IMG/VR virus record: IMGVR_UViG_2778261360_000011
Coordinates: 1 to 5,197 of that record
Direction: 5' to 3' (one strand)
Length of the DNA stretch: 5,197 bases
Source: a virus
Taxonomy: Duplodnaviria; Heunggongvirae; Uroviricota; Caudoviricetes
Shown: one piece after another, positions 1 to 5,197 of the stretch
Layout: each line of letters begins with the position of its first letter
How positions within the stretch are numbered: the first letter of the stretch is position 1
The notes under the pieces: generated by a model
What the model saw: the letters and a program-made list of their open reading frames with translations, nothing else
Databases searched by the model: none
What the model was told of the DNA's origin: nothing
Translations under genes and position numbers: made by a program

Positions 1-291
1 GAAGCAGAAAAAGCTTATTATGCTTCCATCGGAAACGATGATCTGGCAGCCTGAGTTCACAGATAAAATACTCTCCAGGAAACCCGGGGCGGTTCATCTT
101 TCGTAGCCAACTACTATGATGCGCTTGGAAACTACATCCGCAATCTTCGTGACCCGTCACGCCCACAGGATGCAGCAACAAAGAGTTATGTTGATGGGGT
201 TGCAGAAACAAACCTGAGCAGAACGCTACGAACTCCAGAACCGATATCAACTTTACCAGGCGTTGAGCAACGTAAGAATAAGATTGTTGCA

Positions 292-1815
292 ATGGATGAT
301 TCAGGAGACCCAATCATGGTTCTCCCGGAATCTGGGAGCGCTACTGATGTCATGTTGCAGCTTGCTGCCACCGATGGGTTTAAAAATATCGGTTCCTGCC
401 CTGATGTGGCCACATTAAGAAATACTGAACCTTCGTCAGTAAACCAGCAAATTATTGTCAGAGGTTATTATAGCGATACCCCCGGTCTTGGAGGTGGGGT
501 GTTCATGTCGTTTGGCAGTTCTGAAGCTGACGATGGTGTGAATATTTTTGTTACCCCCGGAGGTAAGCGCTGGAAGCGAACAGGAAGCCACATCGATATT
601 CCGGTAGAGAATGGCGGCATGATGGTGTCTAGGACGGCTGAGCAAAACAGTGAAGCCTTTGAACGTCTGACCGCATGCCTTCCATATGAAGGAGGTACGC
701 TCAGGCTCAATGGATTTTACGATATTAAGTATGGCGCTATCGTGCCTCCACGTGTCACGCTGGAGGGGTGCGGTATGGATTCCTGTGGATTAATTAAAAC
801 AGGTAACGATATTAAAACCGTTCCGGATCGCATGTGGCAGGGTGTACCACACAGCTTCTCCAAAGACTTTATTGTTGCGGTAGATATGGATAGTGACACA
901 TCAGGTGATTTAAGCGGGACACAAACAAGAAGCACCAGAATAATTGGATTGAGTATTCTAAATACTGCGCCAAATCCTTGTGATTACGGGATATATAGCG
1001 CTATCAGTTACAATGTGCGCCTTCAGGACCTGTATATTCATAGGGTGAAAACCGGTTATCGCACTAGTGATAGCTGGTTGCAGACATGGGCAAACATTAC
1101 TATTCAGGATGTCGTTACTGGAGTTAAAATCGAAGCAGGTGGAACCACATATAATTTAAACAATATTTATGTGAAAACATGTTCAGGTGTTGGATTCGAT
1201 CTTAAAAATCCGACATATAGCACAATGACAGGATGCGCTGTGGATTTTGCAAATGGAACCGCATATAAATTTGTGGATTGCACCGGGATTGTGTTAGATG
1301 GTTGTGGGTGCGAAGAAATAACAGGGACACAGATATATGCTCGGGGTTCTAGAATTTGTATTAATGGTTTTAGAGGGGTAAATCCAAAGAAAGGAGATGC
1401 AGAATCTTTTATACTTGATTCATCTGTAATTAATTTAAACTCATCTTATCTTCCTGATTATGTTGGAGGTGGTACAGATAAATACACCAAGATAAATGCG
1501 GCGGTGATAAATTCGAATAACTCTATATTTCCTGACCATGCAAACAATAAAATCACATGGGGCGGTGTTCAATCCATAATTAATATTCATGATGAAAGAG
1601 GTGGATACTCAGTAACAGGAAATTCAACGTATACTGTTCTTGGGAGGGTTGAGGGAGGGGTGATTACAATACTCTCTCTACTGCCACCTACGGGAGATGC
1701 TAATTTTTACCCAATTGGTACAAGGTGGGAGTTACTGTATCCATCGGCTGTAGGTCCGTACAAATGGATTTTGTTAGCGGATAAAATTTGGCGTGTTGCA
1801 GGATCATCATCGTAA
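292..1815 (+). CDS. Phage tailspike / tail-fiber receptor-binding protein, beta-helix type (probable polysaccharide-binding or depolymerase domain); 5' end unresolved
   Basis: ORF track 292-1815 (507 aa), stop TAA 1813-1815. Translation has the repetitive N/G/T/I-rich pattern typical of right-handed parallel beta-helix tailspike domains (e.g. NLNNIYVKTCSGVGFDLKNPTYSTMTGCAVDFANGTAYKFVDCTGIVLDGCGCEEITGTQIYARGSRICINGFRGVN), with an N-proximal GGGVF motif. Context fits: directly upstream of an O-antigen-modifying acyltransferase. ATG 292 has no Shine-Dalgarno sequence, and the same frame is open and protein-like back to position 67 (NYYDALGNYIRNLRDPSRPQDAATKSYVDG...) with no ATG/GTG/TTG, so 292 is probably not the true start. 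Confidence 0.7.
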   Translation: MDDSGDPIMVLPESGSATDVMLQLAATDGFKNIGSCPDVATLRNTEPSSVNQQIIVRGYYSDTPGLGGGVFMSFGSSEADDGVNIFVTPGGKRWKRTGSHIDIPVENGGMMVSRTAEQNSEAFERLTACLPYEGGTLRLNGFYDIKYGAIVPPRVTLEGCGMDSCGLIKTGNDIKTVPDRMWQGVPHSFSKDFIVAVDMDSDTSGDLSGTQTRSTRIIGLSILNTAPNPCDYGIYSAISYNVRLQDLYIHRVKTGYRTSDSWLQTWANITIQDVVTGVKIEAGGTTYNLNNIYVKTCSGVGFDLKNPTYSTMTGCAVDFANGTAYKFVDCTGIVLDGCGCEEITGTQIYARGSRICINGFRGVNPKKGDAESFILDSSVINLNSSYLPDYVGGGTDKYTKINAAVINSNNSIFPDHANNKITWGGVQSIINIHDERGGYSVTGNSTYTVLGRVEGGVITILSLLPPTGDANFYPIGTRWELLYPSAVGPYKWILLADKIWRVAGSSS

Positions 1816-1822
1816 AAATTAA

Positions 1823-1850
1823 TTGCCAAATTTAAATATACAGCTATTAT
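1823..1850 (+). promoter_or_regulatory. Candidate sigma70-type promoter for the acyltransferase gene
   Basis: TTGCCA at 1823-1828, a 16-nt spacer, then TATTAT at 1845-1850, about 30 nt upstream of ATG 1881 in the 65-nt gap after the tailspike stop. The region is very AT-rich, so a chance match is quite possible. Confidence 0.25.
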
Positions 1851-1880
1851 TTTGCACAATACTATGCATAGGTGCAAAAA

Positions 1881-2855
1881 ATGGATGAGAAAGTAATCAA
1901 TATTAGGGCCGTAGCTGCTATTATGGTTGTAGTTCTTCATATTAATTCGCAGTATTTTTATGACATTACGAGCTACTGGCCTGTTTTCGCTTTGATTGGT
2001 TCAGCAATGCGGCCATGCGTGCCTATTTTTATAATGATTTCAGGGTATTTATTGATAGGAAGAGTTATCAGTTCAATTGATTTTATGAAGAGAAGAATAT
2101 CAAGACTTCTTCCTCCAATATTATTTTGGGGGGTGTTTTATGTTTTTTTTGTATCATTTGTTGGAAACGCACAAGTTTCAATAAATTCACTCATGTCAAT
2201 ATTAATTGATCCTCCAATGTTTCATCTATGGTATCTTTATTTGATTGTTGGCGTTTATCTCATGATGCCTATTTTATCATCTTGGTATTTGTCGGCATCA
2301 TTTGGTGATAAGATTTTTTATATTTCGCTTTGGTTTGCATGCCTGCTTGTTGCTCAGTTTGGCCTTGGTGTTGAAATTATAAATAGATATTATCTTGGTC
2401 AATTTTCAACATACTCGTTTTATTTAATAGTGGGTGCTTTTGTTAAGGAAATTTCATTTAAGTACAATGTAAGATGGTCTGTTCCAAGCATGGTTTATAT
2501 TCTAATTACATTACTAATAACAACTCTTACGATTTATGACTGTTATAATAATGGAGCGCCGTCAGAGAAGTATTATGAATACACAAATCCAATGGTTGTT
2601 CTTCAATCAATATTTCTATTTATGGCGTTAATTAAGCTTAACAAATCAAATTGGTTTACAAAAGTTGTTTCAAATTATTCCCTTGGAGTTTATTGTGTTC
2701 ATGTTGCGATAATATTACTAATATTCCCTACAATAAAGACAACAATAGATAATGCATTCCTTTCATACTTTGCATCTATTTCTTTAGTTCTGATCTCATC
2801 AGTTATAATTAGCTCAATTATCAGATTGGTTCCTTTTATAAAAAGTGCATCGTGA
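1881..2855 (+). CDS. Acyltransferase family 3 (AT3) integral-membrane O-acyltransferase, probable phage-encoded O-antigen acetylase (serotype conversion)
   Basis: ORF track 1872-2855. ATG 1881 is preferred over GTG 1872 because AGGTG at 1869-1873 sits 7 nt upstream of it. The protein is strongly hydrophobic with about 10 predicted membrane-spanning segments. It carries an N-terminal R-x10-H motif (NIRAVAAIMVVVLH) and an xSGY/F motif (FIMISGYLLIG), both characteristic of AT3 acyltransferases such as phage O-antigen acetylases. It has no C-terminal SGNH domain. GC is roughly 25-32% in lines I counted by hand, far below the flanking lysis genes (about 53%). Confidence 0.85.
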   Translation: MDEKVINIRAVAAIMVVVLHINSQYFYDITSYWPVFALIGSAMRPCVPIFIMISGYLLIGRVISSIDFMKRRISRLLPPILFWGVFYVFFVSFVGNAQVSINSLMSILIDPPMFHLWYLYLIVGVYLMMPILSSWYLSASFGDKIFYISLWFACLLVAQFGLGVEIINRYYLGQFSTYSFYLIVGAFVKEISFKYNVRWSVPSMVYILITLLITTLTIYDCYNNGAPSEKYYEYTNPMVVLQSIFLFMALIKLNKSNWFTKVVSNYSLGVYCVHVAIILLIFPTIKTTIDNAFLSYFASISLVLISSVIISSIIRLVPFIKSAS

Positions 2856-3109
2856 GTGCTTTAGTTGCATGAGACAAAAGCGGGACACACAAGGCTTTGC
2901 ATTGGTAACTGAATCCTCTGTACCTATCACATTGTCGTGGCACCTTACAAAGTTAGGCATCAAAAGCCACGTCATAGCTATGGAGCCAGAAAACACCTCA
3001 CCTATTCAGAATGTTTTTAGGGATTTCAATTAAACCATATATGTATTAATTGTGTATGATGGACTCACCAACTAAGGTGGGTCTTTATGCACAGTAAACG
3101 GTGGTTTCT

Positions 3110-3514
3110 ATGTCAGTTCAACTAACCAGTGAAACATTAAATCAATGGCTTAGTCTTGGTTCTCTAGCTGCGGTGATAGCAGGAGTACCTCCAGAAGTAG
3201 CGTTGGGGTCTTTGTCAGGAGCGGTAATTTTTGTTACCTCTGCGGTAGAGTACCCAATTAGTCGTCGCGTACTCTTGTCGATGCTTAGCTTTCTCTGTGG
3301 GCTTCTTTTCTACAAACCAGCAGCATCAATTCTTATAGGCGTAGCTAGCCTGATCCCTACTATCACGCAGGACTCTTTCGAGAAAGGGGTTGTTTTCTCT
3401 GCTGGCGCATTCGTGTCAGCAATCGTCGCAGTACGAATTGGCATCTGGCTCTATCACCGTTCCGATAATCCACGTGAGTTAATTCCGGGGAGAAAAGACG
3501 ATGGCAACGTATGA
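3110..3514 (+). CDS. Small multi-pass membrane protein (134 aa), putative holin-like, antiholin or lysis-accessory protein
   Basis: ORF track 3101-3514 (GTG start). ATG 3110 is preferred because GGTGG at 3100-3104 sits 5 nt upstream. Four to five hydrophobic segments (WLSLGSLAAVIAGV, ALGSLSGAVIFVTSAV, VLLSMLSFLCGLLFY, AASILIGVASLIPTI, VVFSAGAFVSAIVAVRIGIWLY) and a charged C-terminus ([19 protein letters not shown]). Its stop (TGA 3512-3514) overlaps the next gene's start by 14 nt. Function is inferred from position and topology only. Confidence 0.5.
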   Translation: MSVQLTSETLNQWLSLGSLAAVIAGVPPEVALGSLSGAVIFVTSAVEYPISRRVLLSMLSFLCGLLFYKPAASILIGVASLIPTITQDSFEKGVVFSAGAFVSAIVAVRIGIWLYHRSDNPRELIPGRKDDGNV

Positions 3515-3809
3515 GCTTTTTTTTCTTATCACCAATGCAGTTATTTGTACTGGCATAGCAATTCGCGTTGTCACATTTCGGCGTAACGGGTCACAACACC
3601 GAAGATGGGGAGGGTGGCTTGCTTATTTCCTGATTGTTGCTGCGGCCAGTATTCCTGTTCGTGTCGCCTATGCAATCTGGTTACGCACGCCAATGGCTGT
3701 GGATTTATCTGAGGTCATTATCAACGCTGTCATGCTCGCTGCGGTTATTAAAACGCGCGGTAACGTCGTTCAAATTTTCAAAGTATCGAGGTCTAAACAT
3801 GGAGATTAA
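3501..3809 (+). CDS. Putative holin (102 aa, 2-3 transmembrane segments, basic C-terminal tail)
   Basis: ATG 3501 is preceded by GGGGAG at 3487-3492 with an 8-nt spacer. Hydrophobic segments [42 protein letters not shown] and [19 protein letters not shown], a basic loop ([11 protein letters not shown]) and a charged C-terminus (KVSRSKHGD). It lies immediately upstream of the endolysin and overlaps its start by 11 nt. Confidence 0.65.
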
Positions 3810-4344
3810 ACAATTCCAGCGAGCTGCTGGTATTAGCGAGGCGCTGGCCGCACGCTGGTTTCTGCATATCACTGCTGCCATGAATGAGTTTGGCATTATC
3901 AAACCAGATGACCAGGCGATGTTTATCGCGCAGGTCGGGCATGAGTCCGGAGGATTTACCCGGTTACAGGAAAACTTCAACTACAGCGTTAATGGACTGT
4001 CCGGGTTTATCCGTGCCGGACGCATCACGCCGGACCAGGCCAGCACGCTGGGACGAAAAGCATATGAGAAGTCTCTGCCTCTGGAGCGCCAGCGTGCGAT
4101 CGCCAATCTGGTGTACAGCAAACGCATGGGGAACAATGCCCCTGGTGATGGCTGGAATTACCGAGGGCGCGGACTTATCCAGATTACCGGTTTGAATAAC
4201 TATCGTGATTGCGGAAACGGCCTGAAGGTTGACCTGCTGGAGAGCCCTGAACTGCTGGCGCAGGACGAATATGCGGCTCGTAGCGCGGCGTGGTTCTTCG
4301 CCAGCAAAGGATGCATGAATATACCGGCGATATTGCACGTGTAA
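3799..4344 (+). CDS. Endolysin, glycoside hydrolase family 19 (class I chitinase-like lysozyme); as encoded the ORF is 3'-truncated by an apparent -1 frameshift
   Basis: ATG 3799 with GAGG at 3788-3791, 7 nt upstream. The 236-aa ORF 3634-4344 in the track is an upstream extension artefact that overlaps the holin out of frame. The protein has GH19 hallmarks: GHESGG with the likely catalytic Glu at residue 49, a second Glu nine residues later (LQENF), [12 protein letters not shown], and AAWFFASKG. There is no signal peptide or signal-anchor-release (SAR) segment. The frame ends at TAA 4342-4344 (181 aa), but the conserved GH19 C-terminal block ([18 protein letters not shown]...KVLAV) is encoded in the next frame from 4323 to TGA 4425-4427. 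Confidence 0.85.
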
Positions 4345-4423
4345 CTCTGATTATCAATGGTGGCCGGAACGGCATCGACGACCGGCGCGCGCGGTACATC
4401 ACTGCCAGTAAGGTGCTGGCGGT

Positions 4424-4906
4424 ATGATCTGGGCATTCGCAAAAGCATACTGGAAACAGTTGGTTATCATGGCGATGCTTGCTGTTCTGGTCATATCAGG
4501 AGTTGTAGCCTGGAATGCACACGGCAGTCGTCAGTACGATGCCGGGTATGCGCAGGCGAAGAAAGACCGCAAAGCTGAAGATGAGATAGTTCGTCAGCAC
4601 TACGAACAGGAGAAATCGATCAATGAACGTGAAGCGCAGCATAGGATCGACCAGGCGCGCAATGATGCTCTTGATGCTGCCGCTCGCGCTGGCCGGTTGC
4701 AGCAACAGCTCGTTGCCATCCGTGAGCAGCTCAGGCACTATAACGCCATTGTCGGCGCTGGGTCGTCAGCCGCAGACACCGGAGTTTTGCTTTCCGACGT
4801 GTTCAGCAAATCTCTCGAGAGAAATAGACAACTGGCAGAGTATGCTGACCGGGCATCCGAAGCCGGAAGAGTCTGCGAAAAACAGTACGACACCCTGACC
4901 AGATAG
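4424..4906 (+). CDS. Rz-like inner-membrane spanin (i-spanin)
   Basis: ATG 4424 is the first start after the in-frame stop at 4409-4411, with AAGGTG at 4410-4415 upstream. N-terminal transmembrane segment (LVIMAMLAVLVISGVVAW) followed by a long charged, coiled-coil-like periplasmic region rich in Q/R/E/A (RIDQARNDALDAAARAGRLQQQLVAIREQLR) and a C-proximal Cys. It sits last in the lysis cassette. Confidence 0.8.
   Translation: MIWAFAKAYWKQLVIMAMLAVLVISGVVAWNAHGSRQYDAGYAQAKKDRKAEDEIVRQHYEQEKSINEREAQHRIDQARNDALDAAARAGRLQQQLVAIREQLRHYNAIVGAGSSAADTGVLLSDVFSKSLERNRQLAEYADRASEAGRVCEKQYDTLTR
4623..4898 (+). CDS. Rz1-like outer-membrane lipoprotein spanin (o-spanin), fully embedded in the +1 frame of Rz
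   Basis: ORF 4623-4898 lies entirely inside the Rz gene in the +1 frame. AGGAG at 4607-4611 precedes ATG 4623. Signal peptide with a lipobox (MMLLMLPLALAG-C, then Ser at +2), and a Ser/Pro/Thr-rich mature part. Alternative starts are the ATGs at 4662 and 4665. Confidence 0.7.
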   Translation: MNVKRSIGSTRRAMMLLMLPLALAGCSNSSLPSVSSSGTITPLSALGRQPQTPEFCFPTCSANLSREIDNWQSMLTGHPKPEESAKNSTTP

Positions 4907-5062
4907 CATGGCATTTTTCACGGTACTGATTTCCGGTGACGGTATATAAAACGGTACGGGAAAAATTGAGATTTGGAAAAATGTTATCACTCAATTGGTT
5001 ATGGTTATCGTAAATAATTGAGTGGGAATGATTTGACCCTGCACTATGAATGAAATAAATAT

Positions 5063-5086
5063 CCTCCGGCATAGCCGGAGGTTTTT
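5063..5086 (+). terminator. Rho-independent (intrinsic) terminator downstream of the lysis cassette
   Basis: Perfect 8-bp GC-rich stem (CCTCCGGC at 5063-5070 pairing with GCCGGAGG at 5074-5081), a 3-nt loop, then TTTTT at 5082-5086. An A-rich tract (AAATAAAT) precedes the stem, so it could also terminate transcripts from the opposite strand. Confidence 0.75.
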
Positions 5087-5197
5087 CAAATGCGCCTATA
5101 AGGCTCTCTTACCAGCCGCGCCCTAACAGGCGCACACGATCTGACATTTGCATCCAACTTCGTTACTTACGGCCCGTAAACGGGCTGCCCGGATAGG

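Follow-up and report, generated by a model that had tools for sequence, protein, structure and literature searches.

We analysed a 5,197-nt stretch of viral DNA (IMG/VR record IMGVR_UViG_2778261360_000011, positions 1 to 5,197; hereafter the window), in which a phage tailspike gene is followed by an acyltransferase gene of the AT3 family and a lysis module. Comparison with related loci shows that a portable tailspike tip and a sugar-acetylating enzyme have been transferred together between two groups of E. coli prophages that are not related to each other. We give a probability of roughly 0.7 to the joint reading that this is a host-specificity cassette exchanged between Uetakevirus-like and P22-like prophages, and that its acyltransferase O-acetylates the O-antigen recognized by the tailspike.

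A tailspike tip and acyltransferase shared between two prophage groups

Positions 382-2905 of the window align as a single 2524-nt block, at 95-97% identity, with a set of P22-like prophages (loci L005-L009 and L027) whose flanks are unrelated to those of the window. These carriers encode P22-type ejection proteins, Arc/Ant, a 605-amino acid (aa) tailspike with a PF09008 head-binding domain, the acyltransferase, and an integrase at argW/yfdC. Sliding identity to the P22-like copies is ~60% over 370-490, rises to 96-100% from ~520 to ~2860, and is gone by 2905. The cassette is present in at least 19 P22-like contigs, in chromosomal remnants, and in one P22-like contig of IMG/VR showing the same pattern. 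An earlier sequence-only reading of the window had proposed that the distal tailspike and the acyltransferase form one recombination module, and this block, shared with prophages of unrelated flanks, bears that proposal out.

The left junction is sharpest in L025, the closest Uetakevirus prophage with a different specificity. It matches the window at 98.9% over 94-894 and at 100% over 427-820; beyond nt 874 identity is ~50%, and the fall from 100% takes about 30 nt at nt 875. Downstream, L025 has a 56-aa open reading frame (ORF) and, encoded on the opposite strand, a 364-aa acyltransferase of unrelated sequence, before homology resumes at 2978. L025 is a relative of the kind that the sequence-only reading suggested looking for, with the same proximal tailspike and a different distal domain and neighboring gene. 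In a base-level alignment the window, L005, L024, L025 and L023 are identical across 800-874 (codons ending in KDFI), and the other divergence points on this side fall within about 860-900 in L023 and at about 1160-1220 in L024. We had taken nt 382, and later ~480-520, as the left edge of the cassette; both were superseded when comparison with L025, L023 and L024 brought out a sharper junction at nt 875, which coincides with the break in GC. On the right, the end at 2880-2905 is the same in three downstream contexts, namely an integrase gene, ybhB and a holin gene. Since the L025 junction lies at 875 and the right end is constant, the exchanged unit runs from ~875 to ~2880-2905 and comprises the distal tailspike, the spacer and the acyltransferase.

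The segment immediately upstream of the junction, 520-874, is held at 94-100% aa identity in eight loci (L015, L005, L017, L010, L016, L024, L023 and L025; 83% in L002), although the distal domains reach only 42-66% identity in the divergent loci. It is found in both phage genera, on tailspikes with differing distal domains. Another three complete E. coli genomes contain it at 94-96% DNA identity, and Kutterviruses at 75%. These data suggest that 520-874 likely supplied the homology used for the left crossover. We found no second cassette common to both genera; what L024 and L025 have in common is the proximal segment alone. The distal part, 875-1815, is 97-99% identical at the aa level to L005, L015 and L017 and 42-66% identical to all other relatives, and was not found in 5426 complete E. 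coli genomes or 50,697 phage records. The anchor and neck remainder upstream (97-519) follows the genus instead, with 96-100% identity to L002/L025, ~100% to L015/L025 and 77% DNA identity to phiV10, and only ~60% or no identity to P22-like tailspikes. Overall, the same receptor-binding region stands behind three anchors: a Uetakevirus-type anchor in 700-aa proteins (P0075 and P0076), PF09008 in a 605-aa protein (P0077, 94%), and PF18668 (P0094-P0113, 49-60%), the last exemplified by Salmonella Kuttervirus pSC20 with 55-60% identity in the receptor-binding region.

To place the junction within the protein, we used the AlphaFold2 (AF2) model of P0075. Residues 227-700 are confidently modeled, with mean predicted local distance difference test (pLDDT) scores of 82-98 in most 10-residue blocks and a dip to 64-70 around residues 391-410. 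The model comprises a small β domain (about 246-297), a cap helix (309-322), a β-helix (about 328-570) and a C-terminal β-sandwich. Foldseek matched it to tailspike depolymerases (6eu4, 5e-17; CBA120 TSP2, 1e-12; also 6w4q and 5w6p), so that model and structural matches both point to a right-handed β-helix receptor-binding/depolymerase domain. A sequence search of solved structures gave mainly neck and proximal matches and a weak β-helix match to 6eu4 (3e-7), with no match in the C-terminal domain. In protein terms, nt 875 is residue 388, which lies only a few rungs along the β-helix; a surface loop of low confidence (391-407) follows shortly after. Alternative specificities thus part at a point that is no domain boundary. 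A second boundary, at about 480-520 in the match to P22-like prophages, lies just within the first subdomain of the receptor-binding domain (RBD). No exchange boundary was found here at the linker between anchor and RBD, where such exchange has been described (PMC10408124).

The cassette also stands out in composition. GC content in 200-nt intervals is 0.47-0.51 over 1-800, 0.43 over 801-1100 and 0.28-0.36 over 1300-2900, returning to 0.46-0.58 beyond about 3100, and maximum-likelihood segmentation divides the window into three blocks (1-1091, GC 0.47; 1092-3166, GC 0.35; 3167-5197, GC 0.51). The first split gains 36 log-likelihood units against a maximum of 6.8 among 200 shuffles, and the 2031-nt block 875-2905 has a GC of 0.355 where the lowest equally long block among 2000 shuffles has 0.404; by segmentation and shuffle controls alike, the deviation of the island from its flanks is significant. 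By part, GC is 0.481 over 97-874, 0.316 in the acyltransferase and 0.516 in the lysis genes, with the distal tailspike and spacer between them given in Table 1; positions 2856-3100 are likewise AT-rich (0.39-0.41). Within the tailspike, GC at third codon positions (GC3) is 0.42 before and 0.26 after the optimal split at nt 1096, and position 2 is nearly flat (0.47 to 0.45). The break thus lies inside the tailspike reading frame, and the composition shift is a shift at synonymous sites.

These values agree with the hand counts behind the sequence-only reading, which had placed a low-GC stretch at 950-2860 with a break inside the tailspike gene near 950-1100; exact computation gives three distinct blocks in place of a uniform profile. 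The trough is real, but its right edge has to be moved, as low GC extends to about 3166. On the left, the segmentation (1091) and GC3 (1096) breaks fall where expected and inside the gene, but the homology junction at nt 875 lies 75-200 nt upstream of the proposed boundary. Composition by itself resolves the left break only to about 790-1100, and the offset is within the resolution of that signal.

The enzyme encoded behind the tailspike belongs to the AT3 family. PF01757 scores 137.4 bits (gathering cut-off, 31) in a match of profile positions 6-325, out of 326, to residues 10-314 of the translated 327-aa ORF, PHROG 3333, annotated as O-acetyltransferase, matches with E = 5e-24, and NCBIfam has no match for either the acyltransferase or the tailspike. 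The protein contains the R-X10-H motif (R9-AVAAIMVVVL-H20), the RXXR motif (R72-I-S-R75) and an FIMISG segment; the first two align with phiV10 Oac and with the Buttiauxella and Xenorhabdus homologs, and R/K-X10-H in the first transmembrane segment and RXXR in the first cytoplasmic loop are essential AT3 residues (PMC9558356). Neither a second Pfam domain nor an SGNH domain was detected. Hydrophobic stretches cover the full protein in a crude hydropathy scan, from which a helix count is not reliable. An exact-sequence look-up of the 327-aa GTG-start form returned nothing, and the 324-aa form starting at ATG 1881 is the one matched by relatives. These comprise one E. coli cluster (97%), a 77% singleton (P0002), and proteins from Buttiauxella (57-59%) and Xenorhabdus (45%); the remaining homologs are at most about 32% identical and come mostly from unnamed metagenomic sequence, the named distant matches ranging from Aromatoleum and Pusillimonas to Clostridia, none of them a close low-GC homolog. 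The subfamily thus appears to be rare. Between Uetakevirus-borne and P22-like-borne copies, a rough ratio of nonsynonymous to synonymous substitution rates (dN/dS) of ~0.2 indicates purifying selection on both tailspike and acyltransferase. A promoter and terminator scan around the acyltransferase gave a match count not above shuffle expectation.

Remnants of the cassette were also seen on E. coli chromosomes. At least 20 E. coli contigs carry only window positions 634/682-2905 (97.6%), that is, a 3' fragment of the tailspike with the intact acyltransferase and no other phage genes. The fragments (L017, 9908-12131; also L018 and L020-L022) lie between amiD/ybjQ and ybhB-bioA, and about 150 nt 3' of the fragment still align with the end of the integrase gene of a P22-like prophage. 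Because the remnants keep the enzyme intact beside a mere tailspike fragment, they suggest that the acyltransferase is the part retained after prophage loss, where it looks like a domesticated conversion gene.

Tip, modifier and competing explanations

We compared tip and enzyme across nine loci that are not phylogenetically independent (distal identity taken at the aa level over nt 901-1812). Three loci with distal identity of 97-99% (L015, L005 and L017) carry the same acyltransferase at 97-99.7%. The Buttiauxella locus L010 has 66% distal identity and a 59% acyltransferase, and L016 has 63% and an acyltransferase of ~40-45% that is split into two ORFs. At equal distal identity (63%) L024 has an unrelated acyltransferase on the opposite strand; L023 (44%) has gtrABC-like genes, and L025 and L002 (both 42%) again have unrelated, opposite-strand acyltransferases. 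Across the nine loci, divergence of the distal domain tracks the identity of the downstream conversion gene. Judged from these alignments, tip and modifier appear linked over short and medium divergence and separable beyond it. One apparent pair, a 77% tailspike (P0078/L016) with the 77% acyltransferase P0002, was rejected, as the L016 enzyme is ~40-45% identical and P0002 lies on another contig.

Several loci illustrate the variety of such arrangements. E. coli APEC-O117H42 has two prophage tailspikes (L002, 2619-5969; L023, 4012-8766), with proximal segments 83% and 95% identical to the window at the aa level and different distal domains; the modifier is an opposite-strand acyltransferase in L002 and gtrABC-like genes in L023. 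Another E. coli O117:H42 isolate is the source of a partial copy of the window tailspike (P0081) at 98% identity. In Buttiauxella gaviniae (L010, 6803-10921) the unit is degraded: tailspike fragments persist as 105-aa and 216-aa ORFs next to the 59% acyltransferase, and the locus has another tailspike-like fragment (9172-9826) as well as one more AT3 gene, which is truncated. Over 170 nt of this locus (window 691-860), identity to the E. coli copies reaches 93-100%, with flanks at 55-75%.

We propose that the host-specificity region would have been assembled by homologous recombination, in which prophages of Uetakevirus-like and of P22-like (Lederbergvirus-like) type exchange a ~2-kb cassette (distal β-helix and C-terminal domain, short spacer, AT3 acyltransferase) whole. 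On the left, crossover would run through the near-invariant ~355-nt tailspike segment (520-874) common to both genera, and the right end of the cassette lies 25-50 nt beyond the acyltransferase stop codon. The tailspike tip would bind and cleave a particular O-antigen, and in the lysogen the acyltransferase would O-acetylate the same O-antigen, such that phages with this tailspike would be excluded. The outcome would be serotype conversion and superinfection exclusion, after the pattern of Sf6 Oac and phiV10 Oac; that O-acetylation of the host O-antigen blocks the carrier phage is suggested by the position of the gene, its covariation with the tip and these two precedents. Through adjacency, a new host specificity and the matching immunity could be gained in a single recombination event.

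A number of observations count against this proposal. AT3 enzymes act on many substrates, and the receptor of this tailspike is a putative one among them. The pairing is not absolute: L016 combines a 63% distal domain with an acyltransferase of only ~40-45%, and L024 shares the tailspike to nt ~1160 yet has an unrelated enzyme on the opposite strand. The covariation moreover rests on those nine loci, with their lack of phylogenetic independence. The candidate promoter in the spacer, a sigma-70-like site (TTGCCA-16-TATTAT, 1823-1850), is a mere consensus match. At the right junction no sequence motif proved to be conserved, so illegitimate recombination may have joined that end. P22-like copies outnumber the others, yet this is no proof of the direction of transfer.

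A competing account of the role of the enzyme treats it as an unrelated 'moron' that acts on another glycan (capsule, colanic acid, enterobacterial common antigen or peptidoglycan), hitch-hikes with the tip, and owes its place to a permissive insertion site at the end of the late operon. The diverse substrates of AT3 proteins (PMC9558356) fit this idea, as do the broken pairings of L016 and L024 and the fact that the slot behind the tailspike also takes gtrABC-like genes. But the other genes in this slot are themselves of O-antigen-modifier types (gtrABC-like, or AT3 like the characterized phiV10 and Sf6 Oac), the identity of the acyltransferase rises and falls with that of the distal domain, and the acyltransferase is kept under purifying selection after phage loss, comparable to oafA on a Salmonella phage remnant (PMC7380047); we therefore regard it as distinctly unlikely. 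Two further explanations dispense with exchange altogether. Receptor-binding tips are known to evolve rapidly, and identity to L002 declines gradually from ~450 to ~900, as would be expected if diversifying selection had driven a fast-evolving tip beside a vertically inherited acyltransferase, the boundary marking a change of constraint and no module having been transferred. Such a history is highly improbable given that the same 2.4 kb is 96-100% identical in another phage genus with unrelated flanks, that the collapse of identity to L025 is so abrupt, and that its downstream gene has been swapped for an unrelated one on the opposite strand. Hardest of all to credit is a short-read assembly chimera joined through repeats. 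The window is a draft contig with insertion sequence (IS) copies at both ends, but L015, which was assembled independently, has the same order of tailspike, acyltransferase and holin, other contigs supply more 700-aa copies of the tailspike (P0076 and P0229), and the cassette itself recurs in the P22-like contigs, remnants and IMG/VR contig described above.

An extension of the exchange model, which we consider doubtful, goes further. Here the maintained homology arm at 520-874 and the fixed end past the conversion gene would together make a portable 'recognise-then-relabel' cassette, swapped into mutually excluding specificities. Every distal variant would come with a matching O-antigen modifier, be it an acyltransferase on either strand or gtrABC, and the swapping partners could be co-resident Uetakevirus and P22-like prophages of one serogroup. 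The host cited for this idea is APEC-O117H42, with its two shared-arm tailspikes of differing tips and modifiers.

The origin of the low GC is a separate question. The sequence-only reading had ascribed it to a lower-GC donor; this was not supported, as every occupant of the slot is low in GC and no donor lineage of matching composition was found. In phiV10 and five other prophages GC is 0.34-0.42 in the distal tailspike, 0.30-0.34 in the modifier and 0.51-0.54 in the lysis genes. Modifier values (phiV10 oac, 0.309; the acyltransferases of L002, L003 and L024, 0.309, 0.299 and 0.324; the gtrC-like gene of L023, 0.338) are low despite the modifiers being unrelated in sequence. A donor search over 185,579 representative genomes (one per species) matched one species, Xenorhabdus, and in IMG/VR one P22-like contig only. 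No donor can be named, because the closest homologs from outside E. coli themselves deviate in composition from the genomes that carry them (Buttiauxella, 0.364 vs 0.52 for the host; Xenorhabdus, 0.288 vs 0.43). Low GC thus appears to be a general property of slot occupants and no pointer to one donor.

We lean slightly towards low GC being intrinsic to this class of gene, the cassette having long been resident in enterobacterial phages and moved by recombination among them. The factors would be those of AT-rich accessory genes, membrane-protein codons, AT-biased mutation under weak expression, or selection for H-NS silencing. The uniformly low values across sequence families and in the distal tailspikes of seven loci, the position of the Buttiauxella and Xenorhabdus homologs well under host GC, and the lack of a close homolog in any low-GC taxon among those scanned all favor this view. 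Against it, a GC3 of 0.25-0.29 means that the bias exceeds what amino-acid content explains, and the cassette may have arisen at low GC in the distant past and then resided in phages for a long time. This alternative concerns the origin of the composition only and is compatible with cassette exchange.

The surrounding prophage

The gene content and flanking homology indicate that the window is the late region of a defective Uetakevirus (epsilon15/phiV10-like) prophage from E. coli (Table 1). Pfam matches and annotated relatives identify the tailspike, the AT3 acyltransferase, a holin-like gene, a holin, a GH19 endolysin and Rz/Rz1, and the synteny of the tailspike with the downstream lysis genes is as in Uetakevirus. 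The intact relative L015 is collinear with window positions 95-5054 (97.1% overall, ~100% over 95-3600) and encodes a 700-aa tailspike (P0075, 99%), the acyltransferase and the lysis genes, followed by yfgI/yfgH. An Rfam scan of the window gave no match.

Table 1. Features of the 5,197-nt window
Positions	Strand	Feature	Remarks
1-96	+	IS3-family (IS629-like) right end	Ends ...GGGGCGGTTCA at nt 96; interrupts tailspike gene
97-519	+	Tailspike anchor/neck remainder	Codons 129 to ~269 of 700-aa protein
520-874	+	Near-invariant proximal receptor-binding part of tailspike	Residues ~270-388; small β domain, cap helix, first β-helix rungs
875-1815	+	Distal, probably specificity-determining part of tailspike	Residues 389-700; rest of β-helix and C-terminal β-sandwich; GC 0.395
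1816-1880	+	Spacer	GC 0.246; AGGTG ribosome-binding site 5' of ATG 1881
1881-2855	+	AT3-only membrane acyltransferase	324 aa, intact; putative O-antigen O-acetyltransferase
2856-2905	+	Cassette 3' tail	Identity to P22-like copies decays from ~2880, ends 2905
2906-3100	+	AT-rich Uetakevirus backbone spacer	5' of lysis genes
3101-4906	+	Lysis module	Pfam matches; 87-93% identity to phiV10, L003 and L015
3101-3514		Holin-like gene
3501-3809		Holin
3799-4427		GH19 endolysin
4424-4906		Rz
4623-4898		Rz1
5053-5197	.	IS1 copy end	100% match to 768-bp insertion in lambda_ev058

Both ends of the window are IS copies. The first 96 nt match the 3' end of a two-ORF mobile element in Stx phage PA4 at 98%, and L015 and L025 align to the window only from nt 94-95 on; at the other end homology to L015 stops at 5054. 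The window is very probably a whole short-read E. coli draft contig, broken at IS copies. The tailspike ORF of 292-1815 given in the sequence-only reading is incomplete as a gene. Its frame extends upstream to nt 97, where the IS cuts it; the sequence read from there (SFVANYYDAL...) starts at the counterpart of residue 129 in the phiV10, O117, APEC17 and E7 tailspikes. Codons 1-128 lie outside the window, and the IS appears to have removed or separated the N-terminal, particle-binding part. The genus-specific anchor, which spans the first ~205 aa of phiV10 gp25 (PMC10408124), is present in the window only from residue 129 onward. Because the anchor is cut at the IS while the intact P0075 form exists, we interpret the window tailspike as a disrupted gene of the Uetakevirus tailspike family.

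The endolysin is damaged as well. Comparison with L003 and L015 reveals that a single nucleotide is missing near 4319-4320; this shifts the frame, so that residues 1-173 are read in one frame and 174-209 in another. Because of the IS in the tailspike and the frameshifted endolysin, this prophage copy is considered defective; its phage functions are decaying, yet the acyltransferase is intact. Over 3700-5050, patches of the endolysin and Rz genes are no more than 61-96% identical to L015, which indicates further mosaicism of the lysis module. The 72 nt at 2906-2977 are common only to L015 (100%) and L016 (86%), and homology to other Uetakeviruses picks up again at 2978-3033.

Relation to known systems

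The cassette offers a base-resolved natural case in which a receptor-binding tip and a conversion gene cross between two unrelated genera of temperate podoviruses, with a crossover inside the β-helix rather than at the textbook linker between anchor and RBD. For the engineering of chimeric tailspikes, nt 875 (residue 388) marks a naturally tolerated graft point. The arrangement also bears on why O-antigen acetyltransferases persist in E. coli chromosomes once the phage is gone, and on the prediction of O-serogroups from prophage tailspikes, as a downstream modifier alters the receptor (a caveat already raised in PMC10408124). The architecture is already known in general terms (PMC10408124, PMC9558356); in a limited text search of the literature, no explicit account was found of a tip-plus-modifier unit crossing both genera or of a junction internal to the β-helix. 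What is new here is an uncharacterized pair of tailspike tip and acyltransferase within that architecture, an example of a well-known phage strategy.

In Sf6, the gene order is tailspike, oac, int. The P22-like loci L005-L009 resemble this phage in gene order, with tailspike, AT3 acyltransferase and integrase at argW/yfdC; unlike Sf6, the window copy belongs to another genus and lies between tailspike and lysis genes rather than beside int. A reference title in PMC9558356 places Sf6 oac next to int, and the Sf6 phage attachment site (attP) matches the argW site of Kapi1 (PMC8787464). For AT3-only enzymes, Sf6 Oac serves as the experimental model; what it produces blocks the endorhamnosidase tailspike of Sf6 itself (PMC9558356).

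Another parallel is phiV10, a Uetakevirus with tail fiber gp25 and Oac (PhiV10p26). Its anchor (77% identity), its lysis module (87%) and its order of tailspike, acyltransferase, holins, GH19 endolysin and Rz are like those of the window, and directly behind its tailspike lies a low-GC, AT3-only enzyme with R-X10-H, FIMISG and RXXR motifs, which adds acetyl groups to the O157 antigen and prevents infection by phiV10 (record annotation; PMC9558356; PMC11854483). In contrast, its receptor-binding region is unrelated past window nt ~432, and its acyltransferase gene lies on the opposite strand and encodes a protein only 27.6% identical overall, in which the FIMISG segment is nevertheless identical.

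Conversion genes also occur on prophages and their remnants, as for Salmonella oafA, P22 gtrABC and BTP1 gtrC (PMC7380047, PMC9558356), and some outlast the decay of the prophage, as with oafA, which in Salmonella sits on what is left of a phage (PMC7380047). Retention of this kind matches what is seen in the E. coli remnants (L017-L022) and in the window, whose prophage is defective; unlike OafA and OafB, which have an extra SGNH domain, the window enzyme is AT3-only (324 aa). Exchange of receptor-binding domains among Lederberg-, Uetake- and Kutterviruses has been described, with O-antigen modification genes behind the receptor-binding protein, lack of synteny downstream of that protein in Uetake- and Lederbergviruses, and conserved recombination motifs only in lytic genera and not in these two (PMC10408124). 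As in that system, the same receptor-binding region occurs here behind different genus-specific anchors; unlike it, exchange took place not at the linker between anchor and RBD but apparently within the β-helix, after the 355-nt segment, and the exchanged unit includes the downstream conversion gene.

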